39,598 bases of DNA from Armatimonadota bacterium (lineage in GTDB: Bacteria > Armatimonadota > Fimbriimonadia > Fimbriimonadales > GBS-DC), in NCBI GenBank assembly GCA_040289385.1, contig PSLB01000004.1, positions 1 through 39,598 on the forward strand, written 5' to 3'. Below the pieces are notes generated by a model. The model ran no database searches, had not been told where the DNA came from, and was given only the letters and a program-made list of their open reading frames with translations. Shown piece by piece: positions 281 through 39,598 of the stretch. A program made the translations under genes and the position numbers. Position 1 is the first letter of the stretch, and every line of letters starts with the position of its first letter.

Positions 281-2335
281 ATGGAATGGAACTGGGATCT
301 GATAACGCGTCACACCTATATCGGTGTTTCTCCGATTCTAAAGCTGTTGTTCTATGGGATTATCTTCGGTTCGTTAGGTGTGGGGGCTTACTGGTACTGG
401 AATCGCCTTCGGATTTGGCGTCAGGGTCAGCCAGATGCAGAGCGATTGCCAATACGAGTGCGCCTCTCGAATATGCTGGGCTACGCTCTGGGACAGAAGA
501 AAGTGCCTCGCCATCGCTTTGGCGCGCTCTTCCATATCCCGCTTTATGCTGGGTTCGTGATACTGTTCATCGGCACCACTTTGCTGGCTATCGCAGAGTG
601 GACGGAAATTGGCACAGGCATCTTTCTGCAGGAGGGCATCTGGTTCCACAAGGGGCTTTACTACATTCTCTATGAGGTAACCTTAGACCTGTTTGGGTTG
701 GGGGTAATCTTTGGCTGTCTGCTGGCACTCTATCGGCGTCATGTGCAGAAGCCCAAGTCGGTCAGTTTGGAGCGTCTCGATGGCGTTGCCGTCTGGCTTC
801 TGCTGATCATCTGTCTGAATGGGTATGCACTGGAAGCTGCGCGCATCGCTTTGGAACGCAATCCGGAGTTTATGAATCCACCACGCCCTGCCTATGCCCA
901 GATCTGGTCGTTTGTAGGCTATTCGCTTTCTCCACTGTTCGACAACATCACCGTGGGCACCTATCGGCTGTGGTGGTGGTTTCATGCACTCTCAATTGCT
1001 GGCTGGTTCACCGTTCTACCCTTCACACGGGTTCGGCACTGGTTTTTGGCGCCGATTGTGGCGTTTTACAAGCCGAACTATCTCCCGAATGTGCCCAGCA
1101 TCGAGAGCCTCGAACGCGTTGAGCAGACTGGAAAGATCGGGGTCAACTCAATCGGTGAGTTCTCGCGCTGGCATTTAATGAGCCTCGATGCCTGCATGGG
1201 ATGCGGGCGGTGTGAGCGCGTCTGTCCAGCAAACGCCACGGGAAAGCCGCTGAACCCGAAGCGTATCGTTGAAAAGCTCCGAGAGGCGATGACGAACGGC
1301 AAAGGCGACGATCTGACTCAGGTCATTAGCGATGAGGAGCTTTTTGCGTGTACCACCTGCGGCGCATGCAATAACGAATGCCCTGTGCTAATTGAGCATC
1401 CGACCCTGATTATGGAGATGCGCCGACACCGCGTCGCAGAGGGCAAACTGCGAGGCACAGCTGCCACCACGCTTCAGCGCACAATGACCCAATCGAACCC
1501 TTGGGGGCTCCCGCTTGCGGAACGCATGAAGTGGGCAGAAGGGCTAAATGTGCCCACCGCGCGCGACAATCCCCAATTCGAGGTGCTGTTCTGGGTCGGT
1601 TGTGCAGGTTCATACGACTCGCGCGGGCAACAAGTGGCGCGTGCGATTGTGAAACTGTTCCAGCGGGCAGGGGTCAACTTCGCAATTTTGGGACCCGAAG
1701 AGCGATGCACAGGGGATACACCCCGTAGGCTCGGCGAAGACCTGATGTTCCAAGAACTGGCTCAGCAGAATGTGCAAACGCTATCAACGTACCAACCCCG
1801 CCGAATCGCGGTGATGTGTCCCCACTGCTTGCATACCCTCAAAAACGAGTATAAAGCTTTCGGAGCACACTACGAAGTGGTACACCATTCGCAGTTTCTG
1901 GTGGAGTTGATTCAGCAAGGGCGTCTCCCGCGCCCTGCCCCCCTCTCCAACGGCTCGGTGGTCTTCCACGATCCATGCTATCTGGCGCGAGTCAACAAAG
2001 TGGTGGACGCGCCACGCACGGTGCTCCAAGAGTCGGGTGTAGAACTCAAGGAGGCAGAACGCCACGGAGACCGAACCTTCTGCTGTGGCGCGGGAGGCGG
2101 GCGCATGTGGATGGATGAACTCCCTCATGAGCGTCCGGGATCGATTCGCGCGGAGGAGCTCCTCGAGACTGGAGCGCGCACGGTCGCCGTAGGCTGTCCG
2201 TTCTGCATGATTATGGTCTCCGATAGCGTCAAGCAGAAGGACGACCGCGTGCCTGTCAGAGATATTGCGGAGATCCTTCTGGAGCGCATCGAGGCAGGTG
2301 AAGTCGTGCCTGCTGACGCTGTAGGAGAGGCTTAG
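281..2335 (+). CDS. Membrane-anchored Fe-S oxidoreductase of the HdrD/DsrK/GlpC type, with an N-terminal polytopic membrane domain
   Basis: 684-aa ORF. The N-terminal ~250 aa contain several hydrophobic helices. Two 4Fe-4S ferredoxin motifs are present (CMGCGRCERVCP, CTTCGACNNECP). Two cysteine-rich CCG-type domains follow (CPHCLHTLK, DPCYLAR, CCGAGGG, GCPFCMIMV). Confidence 0.8.
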   Translation: MEWNWDLITRHTYIGVSPILKLLFYGIIFGSLGVGAYWYWNRLRIWRQGQPDAERLPIRVRLSNMLGYALGQKKVPRHRFGALFHIPLYAGFVILFIGTTLLAIAEWTEIGTGIFLQEGIWFHKGLYYILYEVTLDLFGLGVIFGCLLALYRRHVQKPKSVSLERLDGVAVWLLLIICLNGYALEAARIALERNPEFMNPPRPAYAQIWSFVGYSLSPLFDNITVGTYRLWWWFHALSIAGWFTVLPFTRVRHWFLAPIVAFYKPNYLPNVPSIESLERVEQTGKIGVNSIGEFSRWHLMSLDACMGCGRCERVCPANATGKPLNPKRIVEKLREAMTNGKGDDLTQVISDEELFACTTCGACNNECPVLIEHPTLIMEMRRHRVAEGKLRGTAATTLQRTMTQSNPWGLPLAERMKWAEGLNVPTARDNPQFEVLFWVGCAGSYDSRGQQVARAIVKLFQRAGVNFAILGPEERCTGDTPRRLGEDLMFQELAQQNVQTLSTYQPRRIAVMCPHCLHTLKNEYKAFGAHYEVVHHSQFLVELIQQGRLPRPAPLSNGSVVFHDPCYLARVNKVVDAPRTVLQESGVELKEAERHGDRTFCCGAGGGRMWMDELPHERPGSIRAEELLETGARTVAVGCPFCMIMVSDSVKQKDDRVPVRDIAEILLERIEAGEVVPADAVGEA

Positions 2336-10296: not shown

Positions 10297-10326
10297 ATAA
10301 TACCCAACGGCTGACAGGTTTGTCAA
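10297..10326 (-). promoter_or_regulatory. Sigma70-like promoter of the efflux operon (TTGACA-N18-TATTAT)
   Basis: The reverse complement of 10297-10326 reads TTGACAaacctgtcagccgttgggTATTAT, about 55 nt upstream of the tetR start. Confidence 0.55.
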
Positions 10327-10492
10327 GGGGGGGTAGGGATGTTCGACCTTGAGTTGTCCCCATCTTCCCACACCTACCCCCAGCACACACAACCCACACA
10401 AAAGACGCACCACCAGCCCCATATTCCATACTAGCAGTTGCCTCGTAGAGATACAGATACGCCAAAATCGACCTTATCAAGGACGCAACCCA

Positions 10493-10522
10493 TTGACAAA
10501 CGCCCAAAAAATGGGCTATATA
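10493..10522 (+). promoter_or_regulatory. Divergent sigma70-like promoter (TTGACA-N18-TATATA) pointing into repeat copy 1; no intact gene lies behind it
   Basis: TTGACAaacgcccaaaaaatgggcTATATA read directly on the plus strand. The next coding sequence is the WD40-dockerin remnant beyond the repeat. Confidence 0.45.
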
Positions 10523-10578
10523 TAACCAACACGAAGCGCACCACTTCCTACACGCAGACCAAGCAGAAGCTCGCTTCA

Positions 10579-10815
10579 CCACCTCTTGGACGCGCCGCCG
10601 GGAGCCCCGGGCTTGAGCCCTGGGGAGGAGGCGGCGCTCCCTCCCTTCCATCATCATGTGGTATAATGCGAGCATGCGGACATCAACGCTGCCAGGAATA
10701 TCCGCAACCGCTATACCGTCTCTCGGGACGGTGGGCCGTCGTCAACCGGCCCCGAAGCCCTGCCCGGCTTGCCGGGCGAGGGCAAGCCCCCGGATTTAGC
10801 CGTGGGGTAGTTGAC
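10579..10815 (+). mobile_element. Hairpin-ended 237-bp repeat, copy 1 (non-autonomous element / structured RNA candidate)
   Basis: Manual alignment of its reverse complement to 22642-22878 gives 235/237 identity. Bulged hairpins lie at 10605-10625 (CCCC GGGC TTGA GCCC T GGGG) and 10787-10807 (CCCC CGGA TTTA GCCG T GGGG). An internal TGgTATAAT sits at 10659-10667. The flanks differ on both sides immediately outside these coordinates. Confidence 0.85.
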
Positions 10816-11341
10816 ACATCCAAGCCATGAGGTAAACGATGAGGAATCGGTACATTTCCTCACAGGGCACACGAATTGGGTCTACTCTGTTCCCTTCTCG
10901 CCCGATGGGCAGTCGCTGGCGAGTGGGAGTTGGGATGCCACCATCAGGTTGTGGCGGGTGTTGGATGGCACTTTAGGGCGCACCTATAATCAGGAAACAG
11001 GCACGGCTGTGCGTTCCATCCAGTTCTCGCCTGATGGTCGGTTGTTCTTCTACGGGCGTACAGACGGTACTGTAGTAGTGGCACGCAATCCGTTCTTCAC
11101 CGAGGTGAATGGCGATGGCTGTGTAGACGGTGCCGATCTGCTGGCGGTGCTGTTTGCGTTTGGTCAGTGTGAGTCGGGCTTGCCAGAAGATGTGAACGGT
11201 GACGGCGTGGTAGAAGACGCCGACCTGCTGAGGGTGTTGTTCCACTTCGGGATTGGGTGTCGAATCCCCACCCTAACCCTCCCTGTGAAAAAACAGTTTT
11301 CGGATAGGCTCTTAGGCGCGGTGGGGTTCCCCTATTCCTAA
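10811..11341 (+). pseudogene. 5'-truncated WD40-repeat protein with a C-terminal dockerin-like double repeat (probable gene remnant)
   Basis: Only about 2 WD40 repeats are present (LTGHTNWVYSVPFSPDGQSLASGSWDATIRLW; SIQFSPDGRLFFYGRTDGTVVV), followed by VNGDGCVDGADLLAVLFAFG...VNGDGVVEDADLLRVLFHFGIGC. The only in-frame start is a TTG inside the repeat end. Sequence upstream of the repeat is not WD40-coding. Confidence 0.5.
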
Positions 11342-19680: not shown

Positions 19681-21372
19681 ATGCGAATAAGAACGAGCCT
19701 TTGGGTGGGTTTATGGAGCCTTATTGGGAGCGTCTATGGGCAGGCACTGGTCGATACGAGCCTTACATACGATATAGTCGTCGCTTCGGGACTGACCACC
19801 CCTATTGCGATTGCGTTTCTTAACCCTGCAGAGGCGAACCGCTTCTTTGTGATTGAGAAAAACACAGGGCGGGTCAAGCTTGTGGAGAATGGGGCGGTGG
19901 TTGCTACCGTGCTGGATTTGCCCGTGAACAACGCCAGCGAGCGCGGTCTTTTAGGGATTGCCCTTCACCCAGATTTCGCCAGCAACGGCTATGTTTATTT
20001 GTACTACACCCGCTCCAGTACGGGAACGGATACCTCGACCCAATCCGCCTGGACAGACAATCGTGTGGAGCGCTACACTTGGAACGGCTCCAGTTTGGCG
20101 AATCCCACCCTTATCGTCTCTTTTCCGCGCGATACCAGCCAGAACAACGGACCCAACCATGATGGCGGCGTGATTCTGTTCGGTCCGGAGGGCTTGCTGT
20201 ATGGGGTCACGGGCGATTTGAATCGGGGCACGCTTACCAACGGGCGCATCGAACAGAACACTAGCACCACAGCCGCTGCAGGGGTTGGCGGGATCTTCCG
20301 CCTGAACCCTGATGGTTCCATCCCACCCGATAACCCCTTTATTTCCCATGCAAATGAGCGTATCCAACGGCTATGGGCGTACGGCATTCGCAACAGCTTC
20401 GGCATGGTGTTCGATGCACTGACTGCGCGCTTGTGGCTGACCGAAAACGGACCGAATGTCTACGACGAGATCAACCTTGTCGAACGGGGCTTCAATAGTG
20501 GATGGCTCAAGATTATGGGACCCGATTCCCGCAATGCTACCTATGCCGAGAACGGCAACACCCCCTACAACGCCAGCGATTTGGTCTATCTGCCCAACGC
20601 CTACTATGCTGACCCCCTCTTCTCGTGGTTGACACCGATAGGGGTCACCAGTATCCAGTTTTTGCGTTCTGCGCGTTTCGATTCGAGCTTACGCGACCAG
20701 GCAGTGGTAGGGGAGTCGAACAACGGACAGCTTTACCTGTTTCGACTGAAGTCCACACGCGATGACTTTGACCTAACGGGCGCGTTAGCCGATCGCGTTG
20801 CCGATACAGCCACCGAGCGCAACAGTCTCACTTGGGGAACCAACTGGGGGATCGTGACCGATCTCAAAATTGGTCCGGACGGCTACCTATATGGGGTCTC
20901 GCTCTTTGCCAATCGGGTTTACCGCATCCGTCCTGTGAACCCGCCTCCGATTCTGAACGGGCGTGTGCTTTTGAATGGGCGTGCAGGTCTCCCACTCGGT
21001 GTGCCCTTGAGTCTCACTCTCCTGCAGAACGGCACTCCTGTGGAGACGATTGCAACACAGTTGGATGCTTATGGGCAGTTCTCCGAGCGGATTGCTGCAT
21101 CGGGTACCTACACGGTGCGTGCCAAAGCAGGCTCCTACTTATCGGTGAGCGTGTCGAATGTCACAGTCGGCGCAAGCGGGTTCGCTTACCTGCCTCTTCA
21201 GTTTACCGTCAATGGCGATGTGAACGGCGATGACCAGACCGACGATGCCGACCTGCTGAGTGTGCTGTTCGACTTTGGGCAAAGTGAGTCGCCAGCAGAT
21301 CTCAATAACGATGGCACGGTGGATGATGCGGATCTGTTGATTGTGCTGTTCAATTTTGGTTCCAGTGGATAG
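19681..21372 (+). CDS. Secreted PQQ-dependent (glucose/sorbosone-type) sugar dehydrogenase beta-propeller, with a C-terminal beta-sandwich and dockerin-like double repeat
   Basis: Signal peptide MRIRTSLWVGLWSLIGSVYGQ. GSDH motifs are present: ERGLLGIALHPDF, NHDGGVILFGPEGLLYGVTGD, AYGIRNSFGMVFD and ENGP..DEIN. The C-terminus reads VNGDDQTDDADLLSVLFDFG...NNDGTVDDADLLIVLFNFG. Alternative in-frame starts exist at 19663 and 19597. Confidence 0.85.
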   Translation: MRIRTSLWVGLWSLIGSVYGQALVDTSLTYDIVVASGLTTPIAIAFLNPAEANRFFVIEKNTGRVKLVENGAVVATVLDLPVNNASERGLLGIALHPDFASNGYVYLYYTRSSTGTDTSTQSAWTDNRVERYTWNGSSLANPTLIVSFPRDTSQNNGPNHDGGVILFGPEGLLYGVTGDLNRGTLTNGRIEQNTSTTAAAGVGGIFRLNPDGSIPPDNPFISHANERIQRLWAYGIRNSFGMVFDALTARLWLTENGPNVYDEINLVERGFNSGWLKIMGPDSRNATYAENGNTPYNASDLVYLPNAYYADPLFSWLTPIGVTSIQFLRSARFDSSLRDQAVVGESNNGQLYLFRLKSTRDDFDLTGALADRVADTATERNSLTWGTNWGIVTDLKIGPDGYLYGVSLFANRVYRIRPVNPPPILNGRVLLNGRAGLPLGVPLSLTLLQNGTPVETIATQLDAYGQFSERIAASGTYTVRAKAGSYLSVSVSNVTVGASGFAYLPLQFTVNGDVNGDDQTDDADLLSVLFDFGQSESPADLNNDGTVDDADLLIVLFNFGSSG

Positions 21373-22262: not shown

Positions 22263-23138
22263 ATGCGCTCTATCGGGCTCTGAGGGATTATTTTTCTGAT
22301 GCTAATAGTGCTGTGGGCACAAGCGGAGCCTACACCCCAAACAGTGCTGAATCGGCTTGTGCAGAAGGCACGCACGACGCGTGCCTATGCCTATCATTGG
22401 GAGCTCCAACAGCGCGACCCCCGCACCAATAAACTGGGCGAGAAGCAGGTCTACAAACTGGAACTGCTCAAGCCGCCCTACCGCAAGTTGACCATTATTC
22501 AGCGCGACCCTTTCAGTAACGGCGCTGTACTGATCTACAATCCCGATAAGGATAGAAAGTTCATGCACGCAAAGGATTGATCCACCGCACCTACGCGACG
22601 GACGATCCCGAAATAGCCGACTTCTTCCGAACCGATCTAGAGTCAACTACCCCACGGCTAAAGCCGGGGGCTTACCCTCGCCCGGCAAGCCGGGCAGGGC
22701 TTCGGGGCCGGTTGACGACGGCCCACCGTCCCGAGAGACGGTATAGCGGTTGCGGATATTCCTGGCAGCGTTGATGTCCGCATGCTCGCATTATACCACA
22801 TGATGATGGAAGGGAGGGAGCGCCGCCTCCTCCCCAGGGCTCAAGCCCGGGGCTCCCGGCGGCGCGTCCAAGAGGTGGATTGCGAAGGATATTCAACGCC
22901 TCTTCAAAGGCGCGAGAGCAGAACCCGTTCGGCGTGTGAAATACAACCGTCGCGACTGCTATCTGCTTGCTTTCACCACAAAGGATCAGACCTACACGCG
23001 CGTTGTGCTGTGGTTGGAAGTGAACGACTCGATGCCCCTCCGCATCGAGCCATCATGAATGCGAAGGGTCTTTACTCTGTGCGGGTGTATACCGATTACT
23101 CTTTCCCCAATCTGCGGGTAGGTGATTCCTCAGTGTGA
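22263..23138 (+). pseudogene. Decayed LolA-like / outer-membrane lipoprotein-sorting-fold gene, interrupted by repeat copy 2
   Basis: The signal peptide MRSIGL*GIIFLMLIVLWAQA carries an in-frame TGA at 22281-22283. There is a frame change near 22575 (..FMHAKD* then IHRTYATDDPEIADFFRTDLE). A 237-bp insertion follows, after which the gene resumes as IAKDIQRLFKG...VVLWLEVNDSMPLRIE. A second frame change near 23050 leads into NAKGLYSVRVYTDYSFPNLRVGD. Confidence 0.6.
22642..22878 (-). mobile_element. Hairpin-ended 237-bp repeat, copy 2, inverted relative to copy 1 and inserted in the LolA-like gene
   Basis: Two mismatches to copy 1 (22663 and 22674). Hairpins lie at 22650-22670 and 22832-22852. 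The internal TGgTATAAT is on the minus strand at 22790-22798. The host reading frame is recognisable on both sides. Confidence 0.85.
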
Positions 23139-25495: not shown

Positions 25496-25512
25496 TAGTC
25501 AACTACCCCATA
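25496..25512 (-). repeat. Solo 17-nt copy of the repeat-family terminus (TAGTCAACTACCCCATA)
   Basis: Identical over 17 nt to the end of the edge copy at 39522-39538. The 5' arm of the hairpin and the rest of the element are absent. Confidence 0.4.
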
Positions 25513-26398: not shown

Positions 26399-28471
<2,073 letters not shown>

Positions 28472-28474
28472 GCG

Positions 28475-28858
28475 CTACTCTTCGCCCTCAAAAAGGGCCC
28501 TAACGCTCACTATCCAGTATTCGGGAATACCTGCACGGGCATAAACCCTGCTCTTGATATTACGGTCGTAATCGATGGAGGTATCGGCGACCTCGATGAT
28601 AAGCAAGGCTGTCGTGGGGTGGCGCTCCCGATAGCCGTTGGGCTTGCCAGGCACCACAGCAATATCTGGCAATAACTCGCTCTCGCCAATGCGGAGGGCG
28701 TTCTGCACGCGTATGTAGTAGCCTTTCTTCTTGGTCGTGCGATACAGCACCTGCAAAGCTTGATCTACTGTGCATCCGTGCTCAGGTCCAATAGGTGGCA
28801 TTTGGAGAATGGCTCCTTCTAATAGCTCGACGCGGGTATCGGGCGGAAATACCCCCAA
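28475..28858 (-). CDS. Uma2 family (DUF820) endonuclease. The open part starts at a TTG; the full-length frame (GTG at 28984) is broken by an in-frame TAG at 28859-28861
   Basis: RVELLEGAILQMPPIGPEH...PDIAVV...LLIIEVADTSIDYDRNIKSRVYARAGIPEYWIV is the Uma2 core. Upstream in the same frame, ...LRIVPELFHQMG-TAG-LGVFPPDT continues the family N-terminus. TAG is used as a genuine stop by other genes in this window. Confidence 0.7.
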   Translation of the reverse strand: MGVFPPDTRVELLEGAILQMPPIGPEHGCTVDQALQVLYRTTKKKGYYIRVQNALRIGESELLPDIAVVPGKPNGYRERHPTTALLIIEVADTSIDYDRNIKSRVYARAGIPEYWIVSVRALFEGEE

Positions 28859-29187
28859 CTACCCCATCTGATGGAACAGTTCAGGAACAATGCGGAGCGG
28901 TGCAGGGCGTCCGTCCCCCTGAGACAGGGGACGAGACGGTTCGGATTCCGTCTGGACTTGGGTGGAAACAGCACTTATAGCCACTTCGAGTATACCCCGA
29001 TCACGGGATTGTCCATTCCTTAAACAACAAGGAGGCGCAAAGCGGTTTCAGATTTTTGTCTGTAAGCATCTTGTCGAGGCGTCTGTGGGCAGGTCAATCG
29101 CATTCCACTTGGTCGCCATATTCGGGCAGGCGGGTCTGCCAGCCGAGCGTGTTGCGGATGATACCCCAAGCGGGGTACACTTTGGAT

Positions 29188-29769
29188 ATGCGGATTTACA
29201 CGCGTACGGGCGATCAGGGCGAAACGGGGCTGATAGGGGGTCAGCGTGTGTCGAAGGATGACCCGCGCGTTTGCGCCTATGGCAGTGTGGACGAATTGAA
29301 TGCGGTTTTAGGCGTGGTTCGGTGCTACTTAAACGACGGGGAGCTTTCGGCGATTGTGGAGCGGATTCAGAACGAGCTGTTCGATATTGGGGCAGAGTTG
29401 GCTTCCCCTCCAGAGCGAGCGAGCCAATTTTCCGCAATTGACGAATCGCACATCGTGGCGATGGAACAATCGATCGACCGATTCGAGGAGGAGTTGCCTC
29501 ATCTGCGCCAGTTCATTTTGCCCGGTGGAACCCATAGCTCCGCCTATCTGCATTTGGCACGCACGGTGTGTCGGCGTGCCGAGCGCGAGGTAGTGCATCT
29601 AAGTCGATCCAGCACGGTGAACGCCGTGCTTGTGCGCTATCTTAATCGTCTCAGCGATCTGTTGTTTGTGATGGCACGAGTAGCGAACCATCGTGCAGGG
29701 GTGCCCGATGTCGTTTGGGGGGAGCCGGGTTGGCGTCGCAAGCGGCAGGGAGGTGAAAGCCAGCCGTGA
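29188..29769 (+). CDS. PduO-type ATP:cob(I)alamin adenosyltransferase
   Basis: MRIYTRTGDQGETGLIGGQRVSKDDPRVCAYGSVDELN..., FILPGG and ARTVCRRAER are present. Confidence 0.9.
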   Translation: MRIYTRTGDQGETGLIGGQRVSKDDPRVCAYGSVDELNAVLGVVRCYLNDGELSAIVERIQNELFDIGAELASPPERASQFSAIDESHIVAMEQSIDRFEEELPHLRQFILPGGTHSSAYLHLARTVCRRAEREVVHLSRSSTVNAVLVRYLNRLSDLLFVMARVANHRAGVPDVVWGEPGWRRKRQGGESQP

Positions 29770-30758
29770 GAGCTTCCTACGCCCATGTTGCCGACTACGC
29801 TGGCTGGATGAACCTCACAGAGTGGGGCATCCTTCAGGTGCGCGGCGCCGACCGAATCCGATTTCTGCAGGCCCAACTGACCAACGACCTGCGGGCTGCC
29901 GCGCTGGGAGGCGGTCTCTTCGCGCTTTTCTGCACACCCACTGGGCATGTGCTATCCGATACGGTAGTTCTGCTAACGCCCTACGAAGCGCTTTTGATTC
30001 TCCCGCCTGAGACCCACGCCTCCATTTCCGACAGATTGAACGATGCGATTATCTTGGACGATGTGGAGGTATGCCCCCAACATGAAAGCCTCGGGCTGTT
30101 GAGCCTTCAGGGAAGCCAGGTGGATGCGGTATTGGAAGAACTGGAGATGGAACCCCCTCCGCCTGCCCCGCTCACCCACCACCTTCAGTATTGGCAGGGT
30201 GCCGAGATCCGCCTCGCCCGACATGACCGAACAGGCTTCGGCGGAGTAGACCTATTGGTGCCCTATACGGTGATGGAGACGCTCCAAACTGCGCTAATTG
30301 CCACGGAATGCTGGCGCATCGAAGAGCCTTTAGCGGAGGTGCTGCGCTACGAAGCGGGCATTCCACGATGGGGCATAGATATGAGCGCTCGCACCCTCGC
30401 TGGCGAGATGGACGAACCGTTCGTGCGCACGCACATCTCCTACACGAAAGGGTGCTATGTAGGGCAGGAAGTGCTGATGCGGATCCACGCACGCGGACAT
30501 ACGAACCGCACTTGGGTTCCGATGCAGATTGAGGGCACGGTTGTCCCCCCTGCAGGCACTGCAGTTCAGGCGGAGGAGCGTCCTGATGCGGGCGTGCTGA
30601 CAGGAGCAGTCCCCTCACCCGCGTTGGGCGGGGCGATTTTAGGCTGGGGGTTCGTGCGCAATGCCTACATCGATCCTGGCACGACGCTCCAAATTGCGGG
30701 CGAACCGCCTGCCTTAGCCACGATTTTGCCTCACGCTCCCCGACCTGCCCAGCGCTAA
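29766..30758 (+). CDS. ygfZ: YgfZ/CAF17 folate-binding protein (GcvT-like fold)
   Basis: ILQVRGADRIRFLQAQLTNDL and the signature YTKGCYVGQEV. The start is either the GTG overlapping the upstream stop (GTGA) or the ATG at 29808. Confidence 0.8.
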   Translation: MRASYAHVADYAGWMNLTEWGILQVRGADRIRFLQAQLTNDLRAAALGGGLFALFCTPTGHVLSDTVVLLTPYEALLILPPETHASISDRLNDAIILDDVEVCPQHESLGLLSLQGSQVDAVLEELEMEPPPPAPLTHHLQYWQGAEIRLARHDRTGFGGVDLLVPYTVMETLQTALIATECWRIEEPLAEVLRYEAGIPRWGIDMSARTLAGEMDEPFVRTHISYTKGCYVGQEVLMRIHARGHTNRTWVPMQIEGTVVPPAGTAVQAEERPDAGVLTGAVPSPALGGAILGWGFVRNAYIDPGTTLQIAGEPPALATILPHAPRPAQR

Positions 30759-30772
30759 GGTATACTCGCACC

Positions 30773-31744
30773 ATGCAGGGCAAGCGCACTGTACCGTATC
30801 GGATAGAGGGCAGTCCCGACCCCCTCCATGAGCCGATTACCGATCCCCTCTACAAGGCGGTCTTCCCCTACCGAGTGCAGGGGTATTGGGAAGCAGCGGG
30901 GCGGGTGCTTTTGTTTGAGGTGCACGCCCAACGCCAACCCCTCTATGCGTATGCCGAACGCGCATGCCGTCTGCTTTTGGAGTGTTATCAGCTGGCGCAA
31001 ACACGGCTCGGTTTAGAGCATTCGCTTCGTTATGGGCAGACGCTCCGCGTGTTTCTGATGGTCGAGGGCAAGCCCGGCGCCGAGCAACAGCAGAATCTCC
31101 TGTATCTGTATGACCTCACCGAGCAGGTTCCCCCGCGCGAATGGGTGCGCGAACTGACCCACGAGTACGGACACTGGATTATGCCCCCTATCAACTCTTT
31201 CGTCGAGCCGGAGGCGTGGGCGAACGGTGATTTGGGTGAGCGGTGGTTTCTCTATCACCTATGGGAGGGCGTGCAAGCGGGGGCGATTCCCACCTCGGTG
31301 ATCATGGGCGCCAGCGTGGACGATCTGGAACGCTATCTCCGTCGAGCCTACCACCCACTGGTGGAGCGTGTGGCACGCGAGGGATTGAACTCGGCTCGAT
31401 GGCGTTCACGCCGACGCGCAGGCTATGAGGAATATCTCGCGCTTGCGCTCTACGCAGATCGGATCTACGGGAGTGCCCTTCTGGGGCGCGCGATGCGAAT
31501 CGCGGGAGGCGTCGAGCCCGACGATTTCCTCATGGGACTGCGTGAAAGCCTGCTGGAGCGTGAGACGCTCACCGTACGCCTGCCGACGAACCCCTGCTGG
31601 TTGATACTTCCCGCTGGGCTGAAGTTCTGGCAGGTTGCGGCACCGCACCAAGCCCAACTGACCCCCGATCCGAAACGCCCCGATTGGGTACGCGCCCAAT
31701 CGCCGACTCCCGAACTCACGCTCCGTCAGAGGCACGCACGCTAA
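30773..31744 (+). CDS. Hypothetical protein with an HExxH motif (possible zinc metallopeptidase of unrecognised family)
   Basis: 323-aa ORF with coding-like composition and a single LTHEYGHW motif. I recognise no other family signature. Confidence 0.6.
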   Translation: MQGKRTVPYRIEGSPDPLHEPITDPLYKAVFPYRVQGYWEAAGRVLLFEVHAQRQPLYAYAERACRLLLECYQLAQTRLGLEHSLRYGQTLRVFLMVEGKPGAEQQQNLLYLYDLTEQVPPREWVRELTHEYGHWIMPPINSFVEPEAWANGDLGERWFLYHLWEGVQAGAIPTSVIMGASVDDLERYLRRAYHPLVERVAREGLNSARWRSRRRAGYEEYLALALYADRIYGSALLGRAMRIAGGVEPDDFLMGLRESLLERETLTVRLPTNPCWLILPAGLKFWQVAAPHQAQLTPDPKRPDWVRAQSPTPELTLRQRHAR

Positions 31745-32769
31745 GGTACGACGAGTACCTTCAGTGCCTCAGCACGGCGCAAGAGCGCATAGCCTTCTGG
31801 CGCCTGTGACAGCGGCAAGCGGTGGGTGATGAGTTCCGCCACAGGCAAGCCCCCATGTAATAACTGAACCGCCTGACGCATTTCTATAGGACCTGCGGAG
31901 TAGGAAGGAATCAAGCGCACCTCTTGGAAGTAGAGCGCGTACCCGTCGAGAGCGTAGCGGAGATCTGGCGGGGCGGGTGTGAACAGCACGATTGCTCCAT
32001 CGGGAGCCACTATCTTCCAGCCCAGATCGAGCGCATCGAGCGTGCCAGGACCCACGACGACCACTTCGGCGCCCTGACCATCCGTCTGCTTGCGCATGGC
32101 TGCTATGGCATGCGCGGGCTCAGGGGCTTCTACAGGCACTGCCCCCAGCGATTCGGCAACCTGCAGGCGGTGCGGTAGCCGATCGATTGCGAACACCTGC
32201 TGGGCTCCCCAAGCCCGCGCCAACAACAGATGGAGCATCCCCATGACCCCCATGCCGATTATGGCGACCGTTGCCCTGTGTAGGCTTCCTGCCCGCCGAA
32301 GCGATTTGACCACGCATGCCAATGGCTCGGTAAAAACCGCCACCTCGTCGGGCATCGTGTCGGGAATAGAAATGAGGTCGGCGCGCACAATCTCTGGTGG
32401 TACCAAAAATCGCTCGCTCAGCCCACCGGGTTCCAGCCGTGTTGCTCGCCAGGTAGGGCAGTGCACAAAGGCGCCCCGCCGACACAGAGCGCACTGACCG
32501 CACGGGGCATGATGATGCACCACGACCCGCTGCCCTTCGCAAAACCCTTTTACTTCCGAACCGAGCGACTCAATGATCCCCACCAGCTCGTGTCCTGGCA
32601 CAAGGGGTGCCTTTTGGCGGATGTACCAGTCCATCACCTCACCCGTGCAGAGCCCACATGCGCTCAGGTGCACCAGCACCTCACCTTCAGTGGGCAGGCG
32701 CAGAGGGATCTCTTGCCACTCAAAGCGTCCATCGGGTAGGAATCGCCAAGCGTGGGTGTAGAGTGCCAC
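31741..32769 (-). CDS. Zinc-dependent alcohol dehydrogenase family (MDR) oxidoreductase
   Basis: CGLCTGE, the GHELVGIIESLG catalytic-zinc motif, the structural-Zn cysteines C..C..C.......C, and the GxGxxG-like IIGMGVMG. Confidence 0.85.
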   Translation of the reverse strand: MALYTHAWRFLPDGRFEWQEIPLRLPTEGEVLVHLSACGLCTGEVMDWYIRQKAPLVPGHELVGIIESLGSEVKGFCEGQRVVVHHHAPCGQCALCRRGAFVHCPTWRATRLEPGGLSERFLVPPEIVRADLISIPDTMPDEVAVFTEPLACVVKSLRRAGSLHRATVAIIGMGVMGMLHLLLARAWGAQQVFAIDRLPHRLQVAESLGAVPVEAPEPAHAIAAMRKQTDGQGAEVVVVGPGTLDALDLGWKIVAPDGAIVLFTPAPPDLRYALDGYALYFQEVRLIPSYSAGPIEMRQAVQLLHGGLPVAELITHRLPLSQAPEGYALLRRAEALKVLVVP

Positions 32770-32770
32770 C

Positions 32771-33625
32771 TTACACCTCCAGCCAGCGTGGGGTTGTCAT
32801 AGGCACGATGCCCGCCTCGGCACCACGACGCAGAAACTCCGTAATCGCCAGTCGCCCCCGCATTCCCATATCTAGGGTCAGGTCGTTCACATACATCTGC
32901 ACGAATCGGTCGGCAGTGGCCGGGTCTATCCCGCGTCCGAAGCGCATGGCATACGCCATCGCCTGCTCACGGTTTTCCAGACCCAGCCGAATGCTTTCGC
33001 GAACCACCCGCGCGATCTCGCGCTGAACCCATTCAGGCAAGTCCGCGCGCACCGCGTTGATCCCCAACGGGAGAGGCAGTCCCTGAAGGGTGTCGGTTGA
33101 CCAAAGTGAGCGGGTCTGCTCTTGCCACCACACTCCAAGATCGACGAGGGTGTGCAGTCCTGCGGTGCGATGGGTCAGTTGTCCCTCATGAATGAGCAAG
33201 CCCACAGGCACATGCCCCGCCAGCACTGCGAGCATAATCTCGTCGAAGGGCATCTCTATCGTTTGGGCTTCGGGGAGCAAGAGGCGCAACGCTAAGTAGG
33301 CACTGGTAAGCCGTCCGGGAACGGCTATCGTATATTCGGCTAACCGCTCTAACGGGATCGGCTCGCGCGCCACCAGCATGGGACCGTAGCCATCCCCGAA
33401 ACTTCCCCCTTGATTCAGCACTCGGTAGCGGTCTGCCACATAAGCAAGGTTATGCACCGACATCGCCGTGAACTCTAATCGCCCTTGGCGCGACCACTCG
33501 TTTAGAGTCTGAATATCGCGTAAGACATGCTCGAACTGCAGTGGGGTCTCCACCCGCCCTTCCGCGAGGGCCCAGAACATGAAGGCGTCATCGGCGTCGG
33601 GGCTATGACCGAGGCGGATGATCAT
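32771..33625 (-). CDS. MqnA/MqnD/SBP-fold family protein (futalosine-pathway menaquinone biosynthesis-like)
   Basis: MIIRLGHSPDADDAFMFWALAEG... resembles the MqnD/DUF191 N-terminus. A GGAGG RBS is present and an ATGA overlap joins it to the upstream gene. The longer ORF start at 33772 lies inside the upstream gene. Confidence 0.65.
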   Translation of the reverse strand: MIIRLGHSPDADDAFMFWALAEGRVETPLQFEHVLRDIQTLNEWSRQGRLEFTAMSVHNLAYVADRYRVLNQGGSFGDGYGPMLVAREPIPLERLAEYTIAVPGRLTSAYLALRLLLPEAQTIEMPFDEIMLAVLAGHVPVGLLIHEGQLTHRTAGLHTLVDLGVWWQEQTRSLWSTDTLQGLPLPLGINAVRADLPEWVQREIARVVRESIRLGLENREQAMAYAMRFGRGIDPATADRFVQMYVNDLTLDMGMRGRLAITEFLRRGAEAGIVPMTTPRWLEV

Positions 33626-34368
33626 CGTCCTGCCTCCGATTTGTGGGCAAGTGTCTGCTTCTTGGCGTCGTTGAGCCCTTGCACGATGGTCTCGGCGATG
33701 GAGGGATCGAAGATGGGCTGGATTTGCACATCGGAGCGTTGGAGCGCGGAGAGTCGGCTCAGGAGCCACCAACTGCCGGCTACCTCCGAGCGAATAATTG
33801 GCGCTGCCCAGAACTGGTCACCAATTTTGATAAGGAGTCGTTCGTCTCGGGGTTTCTCTCCGAAGGTGCGGAAGCGTGCAACTCGTTCGCGTGCATAGTG
33901 CCACAGTCGGGCGCGCCCCTCCGGAGTGAGTTTGAGGTGGACGACTGAGAAGCCCGGCCGGGCACGCAAGGTCTCCGCTTCGCGGGTCTCCACCCACCCC
34001 TTCTCGATGTGGGCTTCGGTTAGCACCACAGGGCACACTTTGGCGACCTCTTCGGGGTCTATCCGTCGGGCATCTTGGGGGTCATCGCCCTCACCCGTTT
34101 CGGGGTAGTAGCCGGGTCGGGAGAGGCTGACCTCGCGCAACTGCTCCACCACTTTGGGGATTTCATGCGTAATGCGGATTCGCCATCGACGCGCCTCCAT
34201 CTGCTCCGATGGGAAGCCCAGAACCGTAAAGGCAGAGGGTTGGAGTGGGGTCAGCGTCATCCGAGTGGTTTGGTAGTAGCCCCAGCCCAGGTTGACCAGA
34301 TAGACCAATACCAACACCCCAAGCACAATTCCAGCCAATCGTACTGTCCTCTGACGACTGGTGTCCAT
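33622..34368 (-). CDS. Membrane-anchored hypothetical protein (single N-terminal TM helix; the C-terminal part is faintly SecD-head-like)
   Basis: 248 aa with TM helix LAGIVLGVLVLVYLV. It is translationally coupled to the mqnA/D-like gene. Confidence 0.55.
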   Translation of the reverse strand: MDTSRQRTVRLAGIVLGVLVLVYLVNLGWGYYQTTRMTLTPLQPSAFTVLGFPSEQMEARRWRIRITHEIPKVVEQLREVSLSRPGYYPETGEGDDPQDARRIDPEEVAKVCPVVLTEAHIEKGWVETREAETLRARPGFSVVHLKLTPEGRARLWHYARERVARFRTFGEKPRDERLLIKIGDQFWAAPIIRSEVAGSWWLLSRLSALQRSDVQIQPIFDPSIAETIVQGLNDAKKQTLAHKSEAGR

Positions 34369-34471
34369 AACGATGGGAATTGTACCCTATAGGGTAGGAT
34401 GGGGCGATTCTCGAAATTGGAAGCCTCCAGCGAACACTTTCTCCGGCAAGATGGGGTATAGTAGAGGCGCT

Positions 34472-34765
34472 ATGAGTCAGCCGTACGCACGCTTGAGTGC
34501 AGGAGTTCTGCTTGCGCTGATGCTTGCTTGGATAGCAGGCATCCTTCTGCACCCGCTGACGCATCACCCGCTGGAAGCATCCAACGACTGTTTCGTCTGT
34601 ACGCTCCAGCACACGCCAGCCAACTCCGATAACCCGAGCGAGCAGCTCCTCCGTGCGATTGCGCCACCTCCAGTGGAATCTGGAGTTCGGGTCTCGTCGG
34701 AGGTGCCGCTGCGAATTGGTCTTACTCTGCTTCAGCCTCTTATCCCCCGTGCCCCCCCTGCCTAA
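34472..34765 (+). CDS. Small membrane protein with His-rich and CxxC motifs (hypothetical)
   Basis: 97 aa: TM helix LSAGVLLALMLAWIAGILL, then HPLTHHPLEASNDCFVCTLQH. An alternative start is at 34451. A TATAGT box at 34457-34462 lies 9 nt before the ATG. Coding status is unverified. Confidence 0.4.
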   Translation: MSQPYARLSAGVLLALMLAWIAGILLHPLTHHPLEASNDCFVCTLQHTPANSDNPSEQLLRAIAPPPVESGVRVSSEVPLRIGLTLLQPLIPRAPPA

Positions 34766-34924
34766 CCGCCTGTAAAACACGCCTACATTCCCTAAATCTT
34801 CTTTCTTGAGAATGCCCCTTATTGGGCAGGAGTCCGAGTCGTTGTAGGCGTTGTTCCTTACTCTTTTGGCAATTCCTTGCATGCCTTTTGGCACAGATTC
34901 TCGACTCACGGGAGGTTCAGCACT

Positions 34925-35854
34925 ATGCGCAAATGGGCAGTTCTTTGGGCAATCATGGTGGTGCTACCAGGCGTCGCCCAGCATGAGAACGACCTACTGT
35001 TTGGGGCTTCGGCGGGGCGAGCCACCATCATCCAGCCCGTCCCACACCCGGTGCGCCAGATGAGTCCGGTTGTGGGCAACTTTGTGCTGGATGTTGGGTT
35101 AGATTTCTACTTCGAGCCTGACACGGGTCTGCCTCAGCTTCAGTCGTGTCGCGTGCAACAGGTCTGGATCAGCCCTGGATTACTGGGTACGCGGTCTGGC
35201 ATGGGCACGGTTTTCTGCGAGGCAGGGTGCCAAAACTACTTCGACCTGCCGACTCGGGGCACTCCGCACCACCATCTGCTTTTCGCGGTGAACACAGCAG
35301 GCGTTTATGTGTGGGATGTGCGAGCCGTGCGTGCCCGCGATCGCAACGGAGTTCCACTCGCTGACATGGACGGGGTGTACCGCATCTATATGGTTGCGGG
35401 CACCCCGCGGCGGGTGTACGGCGATGTGGTCATCCGTTCCGCCTATCAGGGCGATCCGTATCTGCGCAGGCTCACTATCGCTTTACGCCGGAACGGACAG
35501 TTCCTTGCCCAGCAGACCCAGCCCCCCAACCCCAACGCCATCTATCCCTACATGGTGGGTTTCACTCAGTCAGGCACGGTGGATCTCGTCGCAAAGCTGG
35601 AAGGACACCTCTCCCGCCGCATCCGAGGCTTCGCCCTTACAGGAGCCCATCGGATCGATTGGGAGTTCACTGTCGCAGGCGACATCAACGACGATGATGT
35701 GATCGACGATGCCGACCTGCTGCAGGTGCTGCTCGCCTTCGGACAATCGGGAGCCAACCCTGCGGATGTGAACGGCGACGGTGTCGTAGATGAAGCGGAC
35801 CTACTGGTGGTGCTATTCAACTACGGCGCCACAGGGGAAGGCAGCCAGCCCTAA
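34925..35854 (+). CDS. Secreted protein: unknown His-rich N-terminal domain, a beta-sandwich and a dockerin-like double repeat
   Basis: Signal peptide MRKWAVLWAIMVVLPGVAQ, then HENDLLFG.. The N-domain is paralogous to the next gene. The C-terminus reads INDDDVIDDADLLQVLLAFG...VNGDGVVDEADLLVVLFNYG. A GGGAGG RBS is present. Confidence 0.75.
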   Translation: MRKWAVLWAIMVVLPGVAQHENDLLFGASAGRATIIQPVPHPVRQMSPVVGNFVLDVGLDFYFEPDTGLPQLQSCRVQQVWISPGLLGTRSGMGTVFCEAGCQNYFDLPTRGTPHHHLLFAVNTAGVYVWDVRAVRARDRNGVPLADMDGVYRIYMVAGTPRRVYGDVVIRSAYQGDPYLRRLTIALRRNGQFLAQQTQPPNPNAIYPYMVGFTQSGTVDLVAKLEGHLSRRIRGFALTGAHRIDWEFTVAGDINDDDVIDDADLLQVLLAFGQSGANPADVNGDGVVDEADLLVVLFNYGATGEGSQP

Positions 35855-35877
35855 ATTACGCAACATAGGAGGTACGG

Positions 35878-36480
35878 ATGAAACAGTGGCTAACTTTCGG
35901 TATGAGCGCGTTCTTAGCGGTTCTGTTAAGCGTTTCGTTCGCTGATCACCATGAAGATATCCACTTGGGTATTCGCGACGGCTCTGCTGCGGTTGTAGAA
36001 CCGCATGAATTAGCTGACCCACCTTATACCACCGAGCGGATGTTCGAAGAGTTGATACCAGGGCTGTTCGGCACCGACGTCGGCTGGGATTTCTACACGG
36101 AGTCGGGCGCTTCCCATCCGCAACTGCGGCGGGTTACGGTGCGCCAAGTCTTCATCTCCAACGGGCTTTTTGGCGTGCTGGAAGGGCAGTCAGACCCCCT
36201 GTTCGGGGTAGGCGCGCCGGGCGTCTGGACCCTCGAATACGACCCGAACGACCCCGAATCGGTGCATCAGCACATCATCTTCGCCAGCACGACGCTTCCC
36301 GACCACCACAACCCGCTCCGCTTCCAGTTCGAGCTGATCGACGCGCTGGATTGGCACGGCAACCCTGTGGGCAACTCGGTGGTCTACACCCTGCAGTTTG
36401 TGCCCGAGCCTGCCTCGCTGACGGCGCTAGGGGTAATGGCGTTGCTGGGGCTTCGGCGCCGCACCCGGAGGAACCCATGA
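35878..36480 (+). CDS. PEP-CTERM-anchored paralogue of the preceding protein
   Basis: Signal peptide ending SVSFA, then DHHEDIHLG. Blocks shared with 34925-35854 are DVGxDFYxE...PQL...V.QVxIS.GLxG and HxHxxFA. The C-terminus VPEPASLTALGVMALLGLRRRTRRNP is a canonical PEP-CTERM sorting signal. Confidence 0.8.
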   Translation: MKQWLTFGMSAFLAVLLSVSFADHHEDIHLGIRDGSAAVVEPHELADPPYTTERMFEELIPGLFGTDVGWDFYTESGASHPQLRRVTVRQVFISNGLFGVLEGQSDPLFGVGAPGVWTLEYDPNDPESVHQHIIFASTTLPDHHNPLRFQFELIDALDWHGNPVGNSVVYTLQFVPEPASLTALGVMALLGLRRRTRRNP

Positions 36481-36878
36481 AAGTCGCCTATGTCTTTATC
36501 TCACCCCGTGCCGCGCCCTACAAGTTAGGGCAGATGATTCTGCCCCAACTTGAGGCGGGAACACACGGCGTGGAGGTAGTCGGGATGTTCTTCTTCGATG
36601 ACAATGTTTACACTCTGCGTCGTGGTGACCCCATCGGGGAGCGCTTGGCTCGTGTGGCACGCGAGAAAGGGATTCTCCTGATGATGTGCGACATGTGCTC
36701 ACTGGAACGCCACTTGGCACACGGCTCACCGCGCTGGTGCGACTCTTCCGGACACGGGCGTACCGAACCCGCTGAATGTCGCCCTACCGACACCGTCGAG
36801 GGGGTGCTGGTAGGTTGCTTCCCTTGCCTATACCGTGCCCTTGCAACTAATCCACCCGATCAGGTGATTTCGCTCTAA
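36477..36878 (+). CDS. DsrE/DsrF-like (sulfur-relay fold) family protein
   Basis: 133 aa: MKVAYVFISPRAAP...HGVEVVGMFFFDDNVYTL...GILLMMCDMCSLERHL...DQVISL. An ATGA overlap joins it to the PEP-CTERM gene stop. Confidence 0.65.
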   Translation: MKVAYVFISPRAAPYKLGQMILPQLEAGTHGVEVVGMFFFDDNVYTLRRGDPIGERLARVAREKGILLMMCDMCSLERHLAHGSPRWCDSSGHGRTEPAECRPTDTVEGVLVGCFPCLYRALATNPPDQVISL

Positions 36879-36894
36879 GTCGGGTGCGTAGACC

Positions 36895-36924
36895 CCCTCA
36901 GCCTCGTCTCGGCGAGGCTGAGGG
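36895..36924 (+). terminator. Perfect 12-bp hairpin after the DsrE-like gene (CCCTCAGCCTCG-N6-CGAGGCTGAGGG), no U-tract
   Basis: Read directly 17 nt after the stop codon. Confidence 0.4.
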
Positions 36925-36939
36925 CAGTCGTGACGTCCT

Positions 36940-36959
36940 CCCCTCAATCAATTGAGGGG
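36940..36959. promoter_or_regulatory. 20-bp palindrome CCCCTCAATCAATTGAGGGG, 25 nt upstream of the pseudopilin start
   Basis: Perfect dyad read directly. It is either a hairpin or a dimeric-regulator site. Confidence 0.3.
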
Positions 36960-36983
36960 CATCCTTACAGGAGGTGATCACAG

Positions 36984-37664
<681 letters not shown>

Positions 37665-39497: not shown

Positions 39498-39523
39498 CCA
39501 TGAAAGTTTACCCTATACGCCTA

Positions 39524-39598
39524 GTCAACTACCCCATAGCTAAAGCTAGGGGCTTGCACCTAACCCGCTTCCGCGGGCTGGCACGATAGGCCGGTTGA
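39524..39598 (-). repeat. Partial, diverged member of the hairpin-ended repeat family; the window ends inside it
   Basis: GTCAACTA-CCCCATAGC-TAAA-GCTAGGGG-CTTG..., with the hairpin at 39532-39552. A second hairpin (CCCGC-TTCC-GCGGG) and the conserved GGCCGGTTGA occur at the same relative positions as in copy 2. Confidence 0.6.

Follow-up and report, generated by a model that had tools for sequence, protein, structure and literature searches.

In the 39,598-nt window analysed here, contig PSLB01000004.1 of the Armatimonadota assembly GCA_040289385.1, a small structured sequence, called below the mini-element, is present as two near-identical arms at 10579-10815 (plus strand) and 22642-22878 (minus strand). 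The arms are reverse complements of 237 nt in which 235/237 positions are identical, as given both by a repeat search and by direct reading, and such a match within 39.6 kb cannot arise by chance. The two mismatches are an A/C on the loop side of the right-end hairpin and a C/T in GGGCAAG, and the identity ends abruptly on both sides. The ends of the 237-nt repeat (CCACCTCTTGG.. versus ..GGGGTAGTTGAC) are not inverted repeats, and a target duplication is absent in the flanks of copies 1 and 2. Two hairpins with a bulged T stand on the same strand, CCCC GGGC TTGA GCCC T GGGG at 10605-10625 and CCCC CGGA TTTA GCCG T GGGG at 10787-10807, and share the plan CCCC-N4-loop-N4-T-GGGG. The interior holds the helices GCGCCGCC/GGCGGCGC, GCCCGGC/GCCGGGC, ACCGTC/GACGGT and GTCAAC/GTTGAC, all four backed by covariation in relatives. 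On the two mutually inverted copies, their abrupt ends, the lack of terminal inverted repeats and target duplication, the bulged-T hairpins and the internal helices, our reading agrees with an earlier note on this DNA.

Copy 2 lies within, and breaks, a gene for a LolA-like lipoprotein-sorting protein (22299-23138, plus strand). This protein was rebuilt by taking 233 nt as inserted and counting GTGG, which is CCAC on the element strand, as host sequence. Uninterrupted Fimbriimonadales orthologues, with 57-76% identity, read FFxTDLEWIAxD over the copy-2 junction, the best of them (76% identity, in a Fimbriimonadales metagenome-assembled genome, MAG) reading FFRTDLEWIA(N/K)D, and the GTGG of the plus strand, at 22875-22878, falls in the host codons GAG TGG (Glu-Trp) of this motif. 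Removing 237 nt instead of 233 would break the reading frame. Since the orthologues are continuous only after removal of 233 nt, the insert, CTCTTGG...GTAGTTGAC, sits directly 3' of CCAC without duplication. The inserted DNA proper is then 233 nt long (10583-10815 on the plus strand for copy 1; 22642-22874 on the minus strand for copy 2), and the leading CCAC of the 237-nt repeat is host target, at 10579-10582 in copy 1 as judged from the copy-2 empty-site reconstruction. A 2-nt AC ambiguity stays at the insertion point, because the target CCAC and the element end TGAC both finish with AC. The insert, too, is without terminal inverted repeats (CTCTTGGACG.. versus ..GGGGTAGTTGAC). The repeat boundaries of the earlier note are thus right as limits of identity and 4 nt too wide as limits of the insert, and the weakness that it saw, the absence of a shared target tetranucleotide, disappears, as the uninterrupted orthologues prove CCAC to be shared inside the first 4 nt of the repeat. 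From the 233-nt unit, the empty-site alleles would be ..GCAATCCAC|TCTAGATCGG.. and ..GCTTCACCAC|ACATCCAAGC.., and the circle junction ..GTAGTTGAC|CTCTTGGACG...

Compared with its orthologues, the LolA-like gene is also frameshifted twice, near 22578 (..FMHAK|GLIHRTY..) and near 23050 (..RIE|YHDAKGLYSV.., which resumes in another frame). Real pseudogene decay is the probable cause, and not an error of assembly, because other assemblies match the window over 27671-39598 with no single-base indels and one 6-nt gap (in L001); the region of the gene itself is contained in one assembly only.

Representative genomes were scanned for two conserved boxes of the 3' part of the mini-element, GTCAACCGGCC..GGGGTAGTTGAC. 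The scan returned 44 loci, 43 of them real, in Hadesarchaea, Methanotrichaceae, Thermococci, Pyrinomonas, Chloroflexota, Clostridiales and Patescibacteria; L035, a chance match inside a LysR-type gene of Marinobacter, was left out. At several loci an open reading frame (ORF) with the motif ..CPxCG..HADxNAAxNI.. ends just upstream. Locus L025, from Pyrinomonas sp. ERB_32_1, is a complete element with a left end, an ORF of 395 aa and a right end closing with ..GTAGTTGAC, and its ORF matches Pfam Cas12f1-like_TNB and OrfB_IS605 as well as NCBIfam guided_TnpB ('RNA-guided endonuclease TnpB'). In blastn, positions 13-89 of the element in the window align to L025 1333-1409 (76%), immediately upstream of the tnpB start, and positions 92-237 align to L025 2469-2608 (86%), that is, to the tnpB 3' end and the right end; the same 3' segment is 92.5% identical to the partial element L008. 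In tblastn, the L025 TnpB matches the window with residues 352-395 only, one match per copy. As read from these alignments, about 1.06 kb, nearly the whole tnpB, is deleted from the parent, with the junction at about 10668-10670.

The mini-element therefore joins a left end of about 87 nt to the terminal 146 nt of the parent, which comprise the final 46 tnpB codons (doubling as scaffold), the right-end hairpin and the terminus ..TTGAC. In copy 1 the left-end structure (10592-10637) consists of an outer stem, GCGCCGCC at 10592-10599 with GGCGGCGC at 10630-10637, around the bulged-T hairpin, and this architecture recurs in relatives with different sequences. At 10659-10667, 2-3 nt upstream of the deletion junction, the left end contributes a promoter-like box of the extended -10 type, TGgTATAAT. 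The remnant of the last 46 tnpB codons and the stop (EHADINAARNIRNRYTVSRDGGPSSTGPEALPGLPGEGKPPDLAVG*) extends over 10670-10810 (plus strand; 76-78% identity to L025 TnpB residues 352-395), and has no start codon and an in-frame TAA just upstream. The statement that no protein is encoded is therefore right, yet the right half is the remnant of a coding sequence.

A search with the L008 TnpB fragment recovered no closer full-length parent and no cognate intact TnpB for this host, only an ORF of 84 aa (P0170, locus tag C4337_04955) in an Armatimonadota MAG from the same study. This ORF contains the TnpB zinc-ribbon and RuvC-III region, and beyond the conserved histidine it departs from the stub in the window at just two of the final 43 residues (..GKPPAFAVG versus ..GKPPDLAVG). 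By this comparison the host phylum has, in P0170, a second deletion derivative of the parent insertion sequence (IS), a longer one, and the near-identity of the two tails indicates that this TnpB lineage has lived in this host group. The lineage is large and ordinary, with 833 database clusters at E <= 1e-20, many of them in Ktedonobacteria. Viral contigs gave no match to a single TnpB query; there a profile from 25 homologues was needed. Right ends 92-95% identical to that of the window element were seen in L030 and L042 (Bacillota bacterium CF.Solf.bin.16) and in L008 and L043 (Pyrinomonas sp. ERB_32_1). Near-identical right ends in MAGs of other phyla, mostly at contig ends, reflect either recent cross-phylum transfer or mis-binned contigs that end in repeats.

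Metagenome contigs were scanned with a left-end pattern, which gave two loci only, L047, a chance match within a coding region, and L048. The latter shows the same junction between left end and tnpB stub in unrelated flanks, GTGTTT CCAC|...GTTGAC|CTCTTT. As this junction is common to at least three different sites, the deletion occurred once and the unit transposed afterwards. In the L048 element (1381-1604, minus strand, 224 nt) a different 13-bp palindrome (GTAGGGGCACGGC AT GCCGTGCCCCTAC) stands in place of hairpin A and of the 5' half of the right-end hairpin; the CCCC/GGGG pairing and the terminus are retained.

Besides the two full copies, the window contains one diverged copy, overlooked in the earlier note. 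Copy 3 (39524-39598, minus strand) is the right-end part of an element of a sister subfamily, cut by the window end and located 26 nt upstream of a BatA/VWA gene; its stems differ from those of copies 1 and 2 by compensatory changes, e.g. CGGC/GCCG to TAGC/GCTA. Independent short-read assemblies of the same organism are at least 99.9% identical to the window, and the window and two independent metagenome contigs (L001, L002) all terminate inside copy 3; at its other side the 16.8-kb ENA contig NODE_634 stops, by its coordinates, inside copy 2. With contigs breaking in copies 2 and 3, which also counts in favour of mobility, the element is a systematic assembly breakpoint for this organism. Also missed was a solitary right-end tip, TGGGGTAGTTGAC (13 nt, 25498-25510, minus strand), which has no hairpin and no remaining element. 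It lies between the PrkA gene and queC, and over 25496-25512 (TATGGGGTAGTTGACTA) 17 nt, including 2 flank bases, are identical to copy 3. This tip may be a decayed element or a scar of aberrant excision. The 11.8 kb bracketed by copies 1 and 2, which are mutually inverted, include genes for DNA polymerase III delta', a dockerin-repeat protein and a protein with a cyclic di-AMP receptor domain, and could be inverted if the two copies underwent homologous recombination.

The target is conserved beyond copy 2. The left flank reads NCCAC in 4/4 copies, the preceding base being A in copy 1 and T in copy 2, L025 and L048. Further relatives were picked by TnpB protein homology and not by a DNA pattern; where their left ends are intact, CCAC or CCAT stands 5-9 nt before the left-end outer stem (L055 being unclear), and in several the left end is degenerate or truncated. 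Their right termini are TTGAC, CTGAC, CTGAT or TCGAC. The empty site, as reconstructed from the orthologous genes, verifies (T)CCAC as the transposon-adjacent motif (TAM) of this element, in line with the arrangement of a TAM and a transposon-encoded motif (TEM) described for IS608 and ISGst elements (PMC10055086). A pairing in the manner of IS608 between CCAC and the GGAG just 5' of the left-end hairpin fits the window element and not all of the relatives, and we make no claim for it.

We consider it very probable that the 237-bp repeat arose by deletion from a tnpB-only (IS1341-like) IS200/IS605 element and is now non-autonomous and protein-less, of the kind known as palindrome-associated transposable elements (PATEs). 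Its anatomy, its homology, its precise insertion at CCAC and the repeated transposition of the deleted form are documented by the sequence comparisons above. The features of this IS family are found together, namely same-strand subterminal hairpins, no terminal inverted repeats, a specific target without duplication and ends homologous to a TnpB element, and those of PATEs as well, with several copies and no coding capacity beyond the start-less 46-codon tnpB stub. The earlier note had favoured the same assignment, which the homology to the left end, the tnpB 3' end and the right end of a full-length TnpB element now bears out.

The retained 3' segment presents the features of an omegaRNA scaffold (10715-10815, plus strand). 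Homology with the tnpB loci L025 and L008 and with 12 others identifies this region as the tnpB 3' end and right end, closing at the transposon boundary. The last 104 nt were aligned for 15 sequences, the window element and 14 relatives, 12 of which had been found by protein homology only. Covariation in this alignment gives a model of five helices: a scaffold hairpin (10715-10732), a stem GGGCCG/CGGCCC (10733-10738 with 10747-10752), a pseudoknot in which GUCAAC in the loop of this stem (10741-10746) pairs with the terminal GUUGAC (10810-10815), hairpin A (10757-10783, of which the base was counted) and the right-end hairpin (10787-10807, inner part counted). In this model 98.5% of 405 cells are paired and 21/27 pairs show changes on both sides; 0/500 shuffles reach any observed value, and slid partners pair at 31-44%. 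The pseudoknot helix is 100% paired, with 4/6 pairs covarying, e.g. GTCAGT/ACTGAC, ATCAGT/ACTGAT and GTCGAT/ATCGAC. At the element ends, counting was confined to the inner hairpin of the left end and the inner half of the right-end hairpin, because farther out the bulged T shifts the register between sequences. The left-end inner hairpin covaries in relatives too. Within each element the left- and right-end hairpins are alike, as expected if one TnpA reads both. Against all 4227 Rfam families, the whole window gave 0 matches at the gathering threshold and only chance-level matches (E > 1) in E-value mode. For the ISDra2 omegaRNA, a pseudoknotted scaffold of 116 nt is sufficient and the 5' region dispensable (PMC10097598); its structure shows a scaffold of about 100 nt with the 3' end in a pseudoknot beside the guide, and the 146 nt kept here therefore cover the whole predicted core.

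In relatives, the position homologous to the box at 10659-10667 carries a full sigma-70 promoter, TTGACA-N17-TGGTAnAAT, just before the tnpB ATG. A mechanism can be proposed from these features by analogy with IS608, ISDra2 and ISGst elements. A Y1 (HUH) TnpA encoded elsewhere would bind the two same-strand hairpins on single-stranded DNA, excise the 233-nt top strand as a circle and paste it 3' of another (T)CCAC. Less certainly, the left-end extended -10 promoter, which the deletion has brought to about 5-10 nt from the retained 3' segment, would transcribe the pseudoknotted scaffold, of about 140 nt, from a start at about 10673-10676 through the right end into the flank. The guide of the resulting omegaRNA would be adjacent host sequence, predicted for copy 1 at 10816-10835 (plus strand; ACATCCAAGCCATGAGGTAA) from the TnpB/omegaRNA mechanism (PMC10055086, PMC10097598), and would match the element's own empty site, CCAC and the right flank. 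TnpB acting in trans could cut vacated sites of this kind, and recombination could restore the element. On this analogy, both the movement of the unit by TnpA and the use of its RNA by TnpB would take place in trans. PATEs 'often encode omegaRNAs' for use by TnpB in trans (Meers et al., PMC10055086).

Some of the data weigh against the assignment to an active, trans-mobilised derivative. The nearest full-length relative found is just 76% (left end) and 86% (right end) identical, and the exact parent was not recovered. Neither tnpA nor an intact tnpB is present in the 39.6-kb window, and the partners acting in trans are putative. Copies 1 (plus strand) and 2 (minus strand) have opposite orientations within 12 kb, copy 3 is on the minus strand, and GC skew shows no clear switch between them; this would not fit a strict lagging-strand bias, but three copies are too few to judge one. 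The promoter-like box has no -35 element, and a generic sigma-70 scan of 10300-11100 was negative; the scan is silent on the box because the -35 is absent, and the promoter call rests on the extended -10 together with the homology with relatives. Finally, former coding sequence makes up those scaffold stems that precede the right end, and their conservation could in part be protein-driven, whereas the compensatory changes in these stems argue for an RNA or DNA structure. The missing transposase and TnpB, the missing -35 element and the solitary tip at 25498-25510, which shows that such elements decay here, would also suit a view of the copies as inert relics, i.e. dead deletion remnants, immobile and without a functional RNA, whose structure is merely inherited from the parent. 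This view is unlikely, since one deletion junction at three insertion sites implies transposition after the loss of tnpB, copies 1 and 2 differ by just 2 nt in 237, and neither the two hairpins nor the TAM context nor any scaffold helix has been lost.

That the unit acts instead as a mobile promoter or regulatory cassette, in which outward transcription into the neighbour gene and not a guide RNA is the relevant activity, is suggested by copies 1 and 3, which lie directly upstream of co-oriented ORFs (a WD40/dockerin ORF that starts at 10811, and at 39497 the BatA/VWA gene). We regard this as very improbable: copy 2 is intragenic and antisense to the LolA-like gene, making an omegaRNA inherently entails transcription out of the element, and two cases are too few for a pattern. 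A hairpin-rich, non-coding, repeated sequence without an Rfam match could likewise be a repetitive extragenic palindrome (REP) or bacterial interspersed mosaic element (BIME) moved by a REP-associated tyrosine transposase (RAYT), an IS110-type end with a bridge RNA, or a small RNA or riboswitch unrelated to transposons. These options have hardly any probability, since the unit is directly homologous to the 3' end of tnpB and to the left and right ends of a TnpB element, is inserted precisely at CCAC, far exceeds REP units with its 233 nt and is neither clustered nor in tandem. The REP/BIME alternative of the earlier note is accordingly rejected for a dispersed 233-nt unit with tnpB homology, and from its other alternative, a mobile structured small RNA, one part survives, in that the right half is a TnpB omegaRNA scaffold, while the unit as a whole is a transposon derivative. 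A segmental duplication, a template/variable repeat pair of a diversity-generating retroelement, a group II intron remnant and a riboswitch or leader were rejected as well.

Mini versions of this kind were observed in other hosts. Clostridiales bacterium RBS10-35 (L022, L024, L034, L038) carries protein-less minis of about 350 nt with a left end and TGTGGTATAAT, and Thermococci (L006, L019) and Ca. Alkanophaga (L039) carry protein-less minis of about 250-280 nt in which the left-end hairpin is followed by a TATA-like TTTTTAAA. The Clostridiales and archaeal minis have a longer omegaRNA with a conserved 5' module, AAGGCAC..GGGGAAACGGCTT, and the same 3' pseudoknot motif. Armatimonadota (233 nt), a Clostridiales MAG and archaea thus have independent mini versions, and all end in the same pseudoknot motif. 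Tentatively, and with the odds rather against it, such omegaRNA-only minis might be, instead of random debris, recurrent, selected 'guide-RNA genes' with their own left-end promoter, which parasitise TnpA for movement and TnpB for retention. If one TnpB does serve many guides in trans, this would be a natural multi-guide state on the path from TnpB to CRISPR-Cas12.

Among the neighbouring features, the WD40/dockerin ORF beside copy 1 (10811-11341, plus strand) has its TTG start within the terminal GTTGAC of the element. Its translation opens partway through a WD40 repeat, so that it looks N-terminally truncated, and the flank upstream of the element does not contain the missing part. Direct repeats of about 83 nt, with 63-76% identity, were found at 11085-11254, 21200-21282 and 35664-35746; at least the first two copies lie in an ORF matching Pfam Dockerin_1 (..VNGDG.VDDADLL.VLF.FG..). 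The family thus seems to code for calcium-binding repeats of the dockerin type in separate genes, which is a matter of protein architecture and not of mobile DNA.

One small mobile element accounts for both repeats, for the partial copy where the contig stops, for the broken LolA-like gene and for the breaks in the short-read assemblies. The points of interest are the TAM verified by an empty site, the fusion of a promoter to a scaffold and a covariation-backed omegaRNA model missing from Rfam, which together make a clean natural case of an element reduced to its ends, a promoter and a guide-RNA scaffold. Such minimal units define the sequences sufficient for mobilisation and, if the RNA is used in trans, also for TnpB-guided retention, and an RNA family model of this widespread type of omegaRNA could be started from the scaffold alignment.

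Compared with known systems, the mini-element is small, non-autonomous, repeated and structured like the classical miniature inverted-repeat transposable elements (MITEs) derived from IS630/Tc1, IS5 and others and like REP/BIME sequences. However, MITEs carry terminal inverted repeats and target duplications, of which it has neither, and REP units are about 20-40 nt long, often clustered and RAYT-dependent, in contrast to a dispersed, tnpB-homologous composite of 233 nt. With the ISDra2 omegaRNA, as seen by cryo-electron microscopy (PMC10097598), it shares 3'-terminal nucleotides beside the guide that pair about 70-100 nt upstream, a pseudoknot stacked on a stem and a scaffold of about 100-116 nt overlapping the dispensable C-terminal tail of TnpB; the two RNAs have no detectable sequence similarity, and the helix layout given here, which is not in Rfam, comes from covariation alone. 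Within the tnpB-only IS1341 group, in which L025 is the closest element and ISDra2 the studied model, the left end, the right end and the tnpB 3' end are homologous, the TAM/TEM logic (CCAC versus TTGAC) is the same and a pseudoknotted omegaRNA ends at the right-end boundary. The mini-element differs from this group in lacking about 1.06 kb of tnpB, and for this reason would depend on TnpA and TnpB in trans.

The kind of element is already known, as PATEs and omegaRNA-bearing PATEs were described before, and the label 'undescribed' given to the repeat in the earlier note fails on this match to a known family. The PATE name was reportedly first given in haloarchaea, by Dyall-Smith et al. in 2011. 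PATE-like elements are known in Geobacillus stearothermophilus (PMC10055086). Like PATEs, the mini-element is short, non-coding and multicopy, has same-strand subterminal hairpins and neither terminal inverted repeats nor target duplication, and carries the omegaRNA region. Unlike them, it resides in an Armatimonadota host, has its TnpB relatives in Pyrinomonas and Ktedonobacteria and uses (T)CCAC as TAM, and its deletion sets the left-end extended -10 within a few nucleotides of the scaffold.

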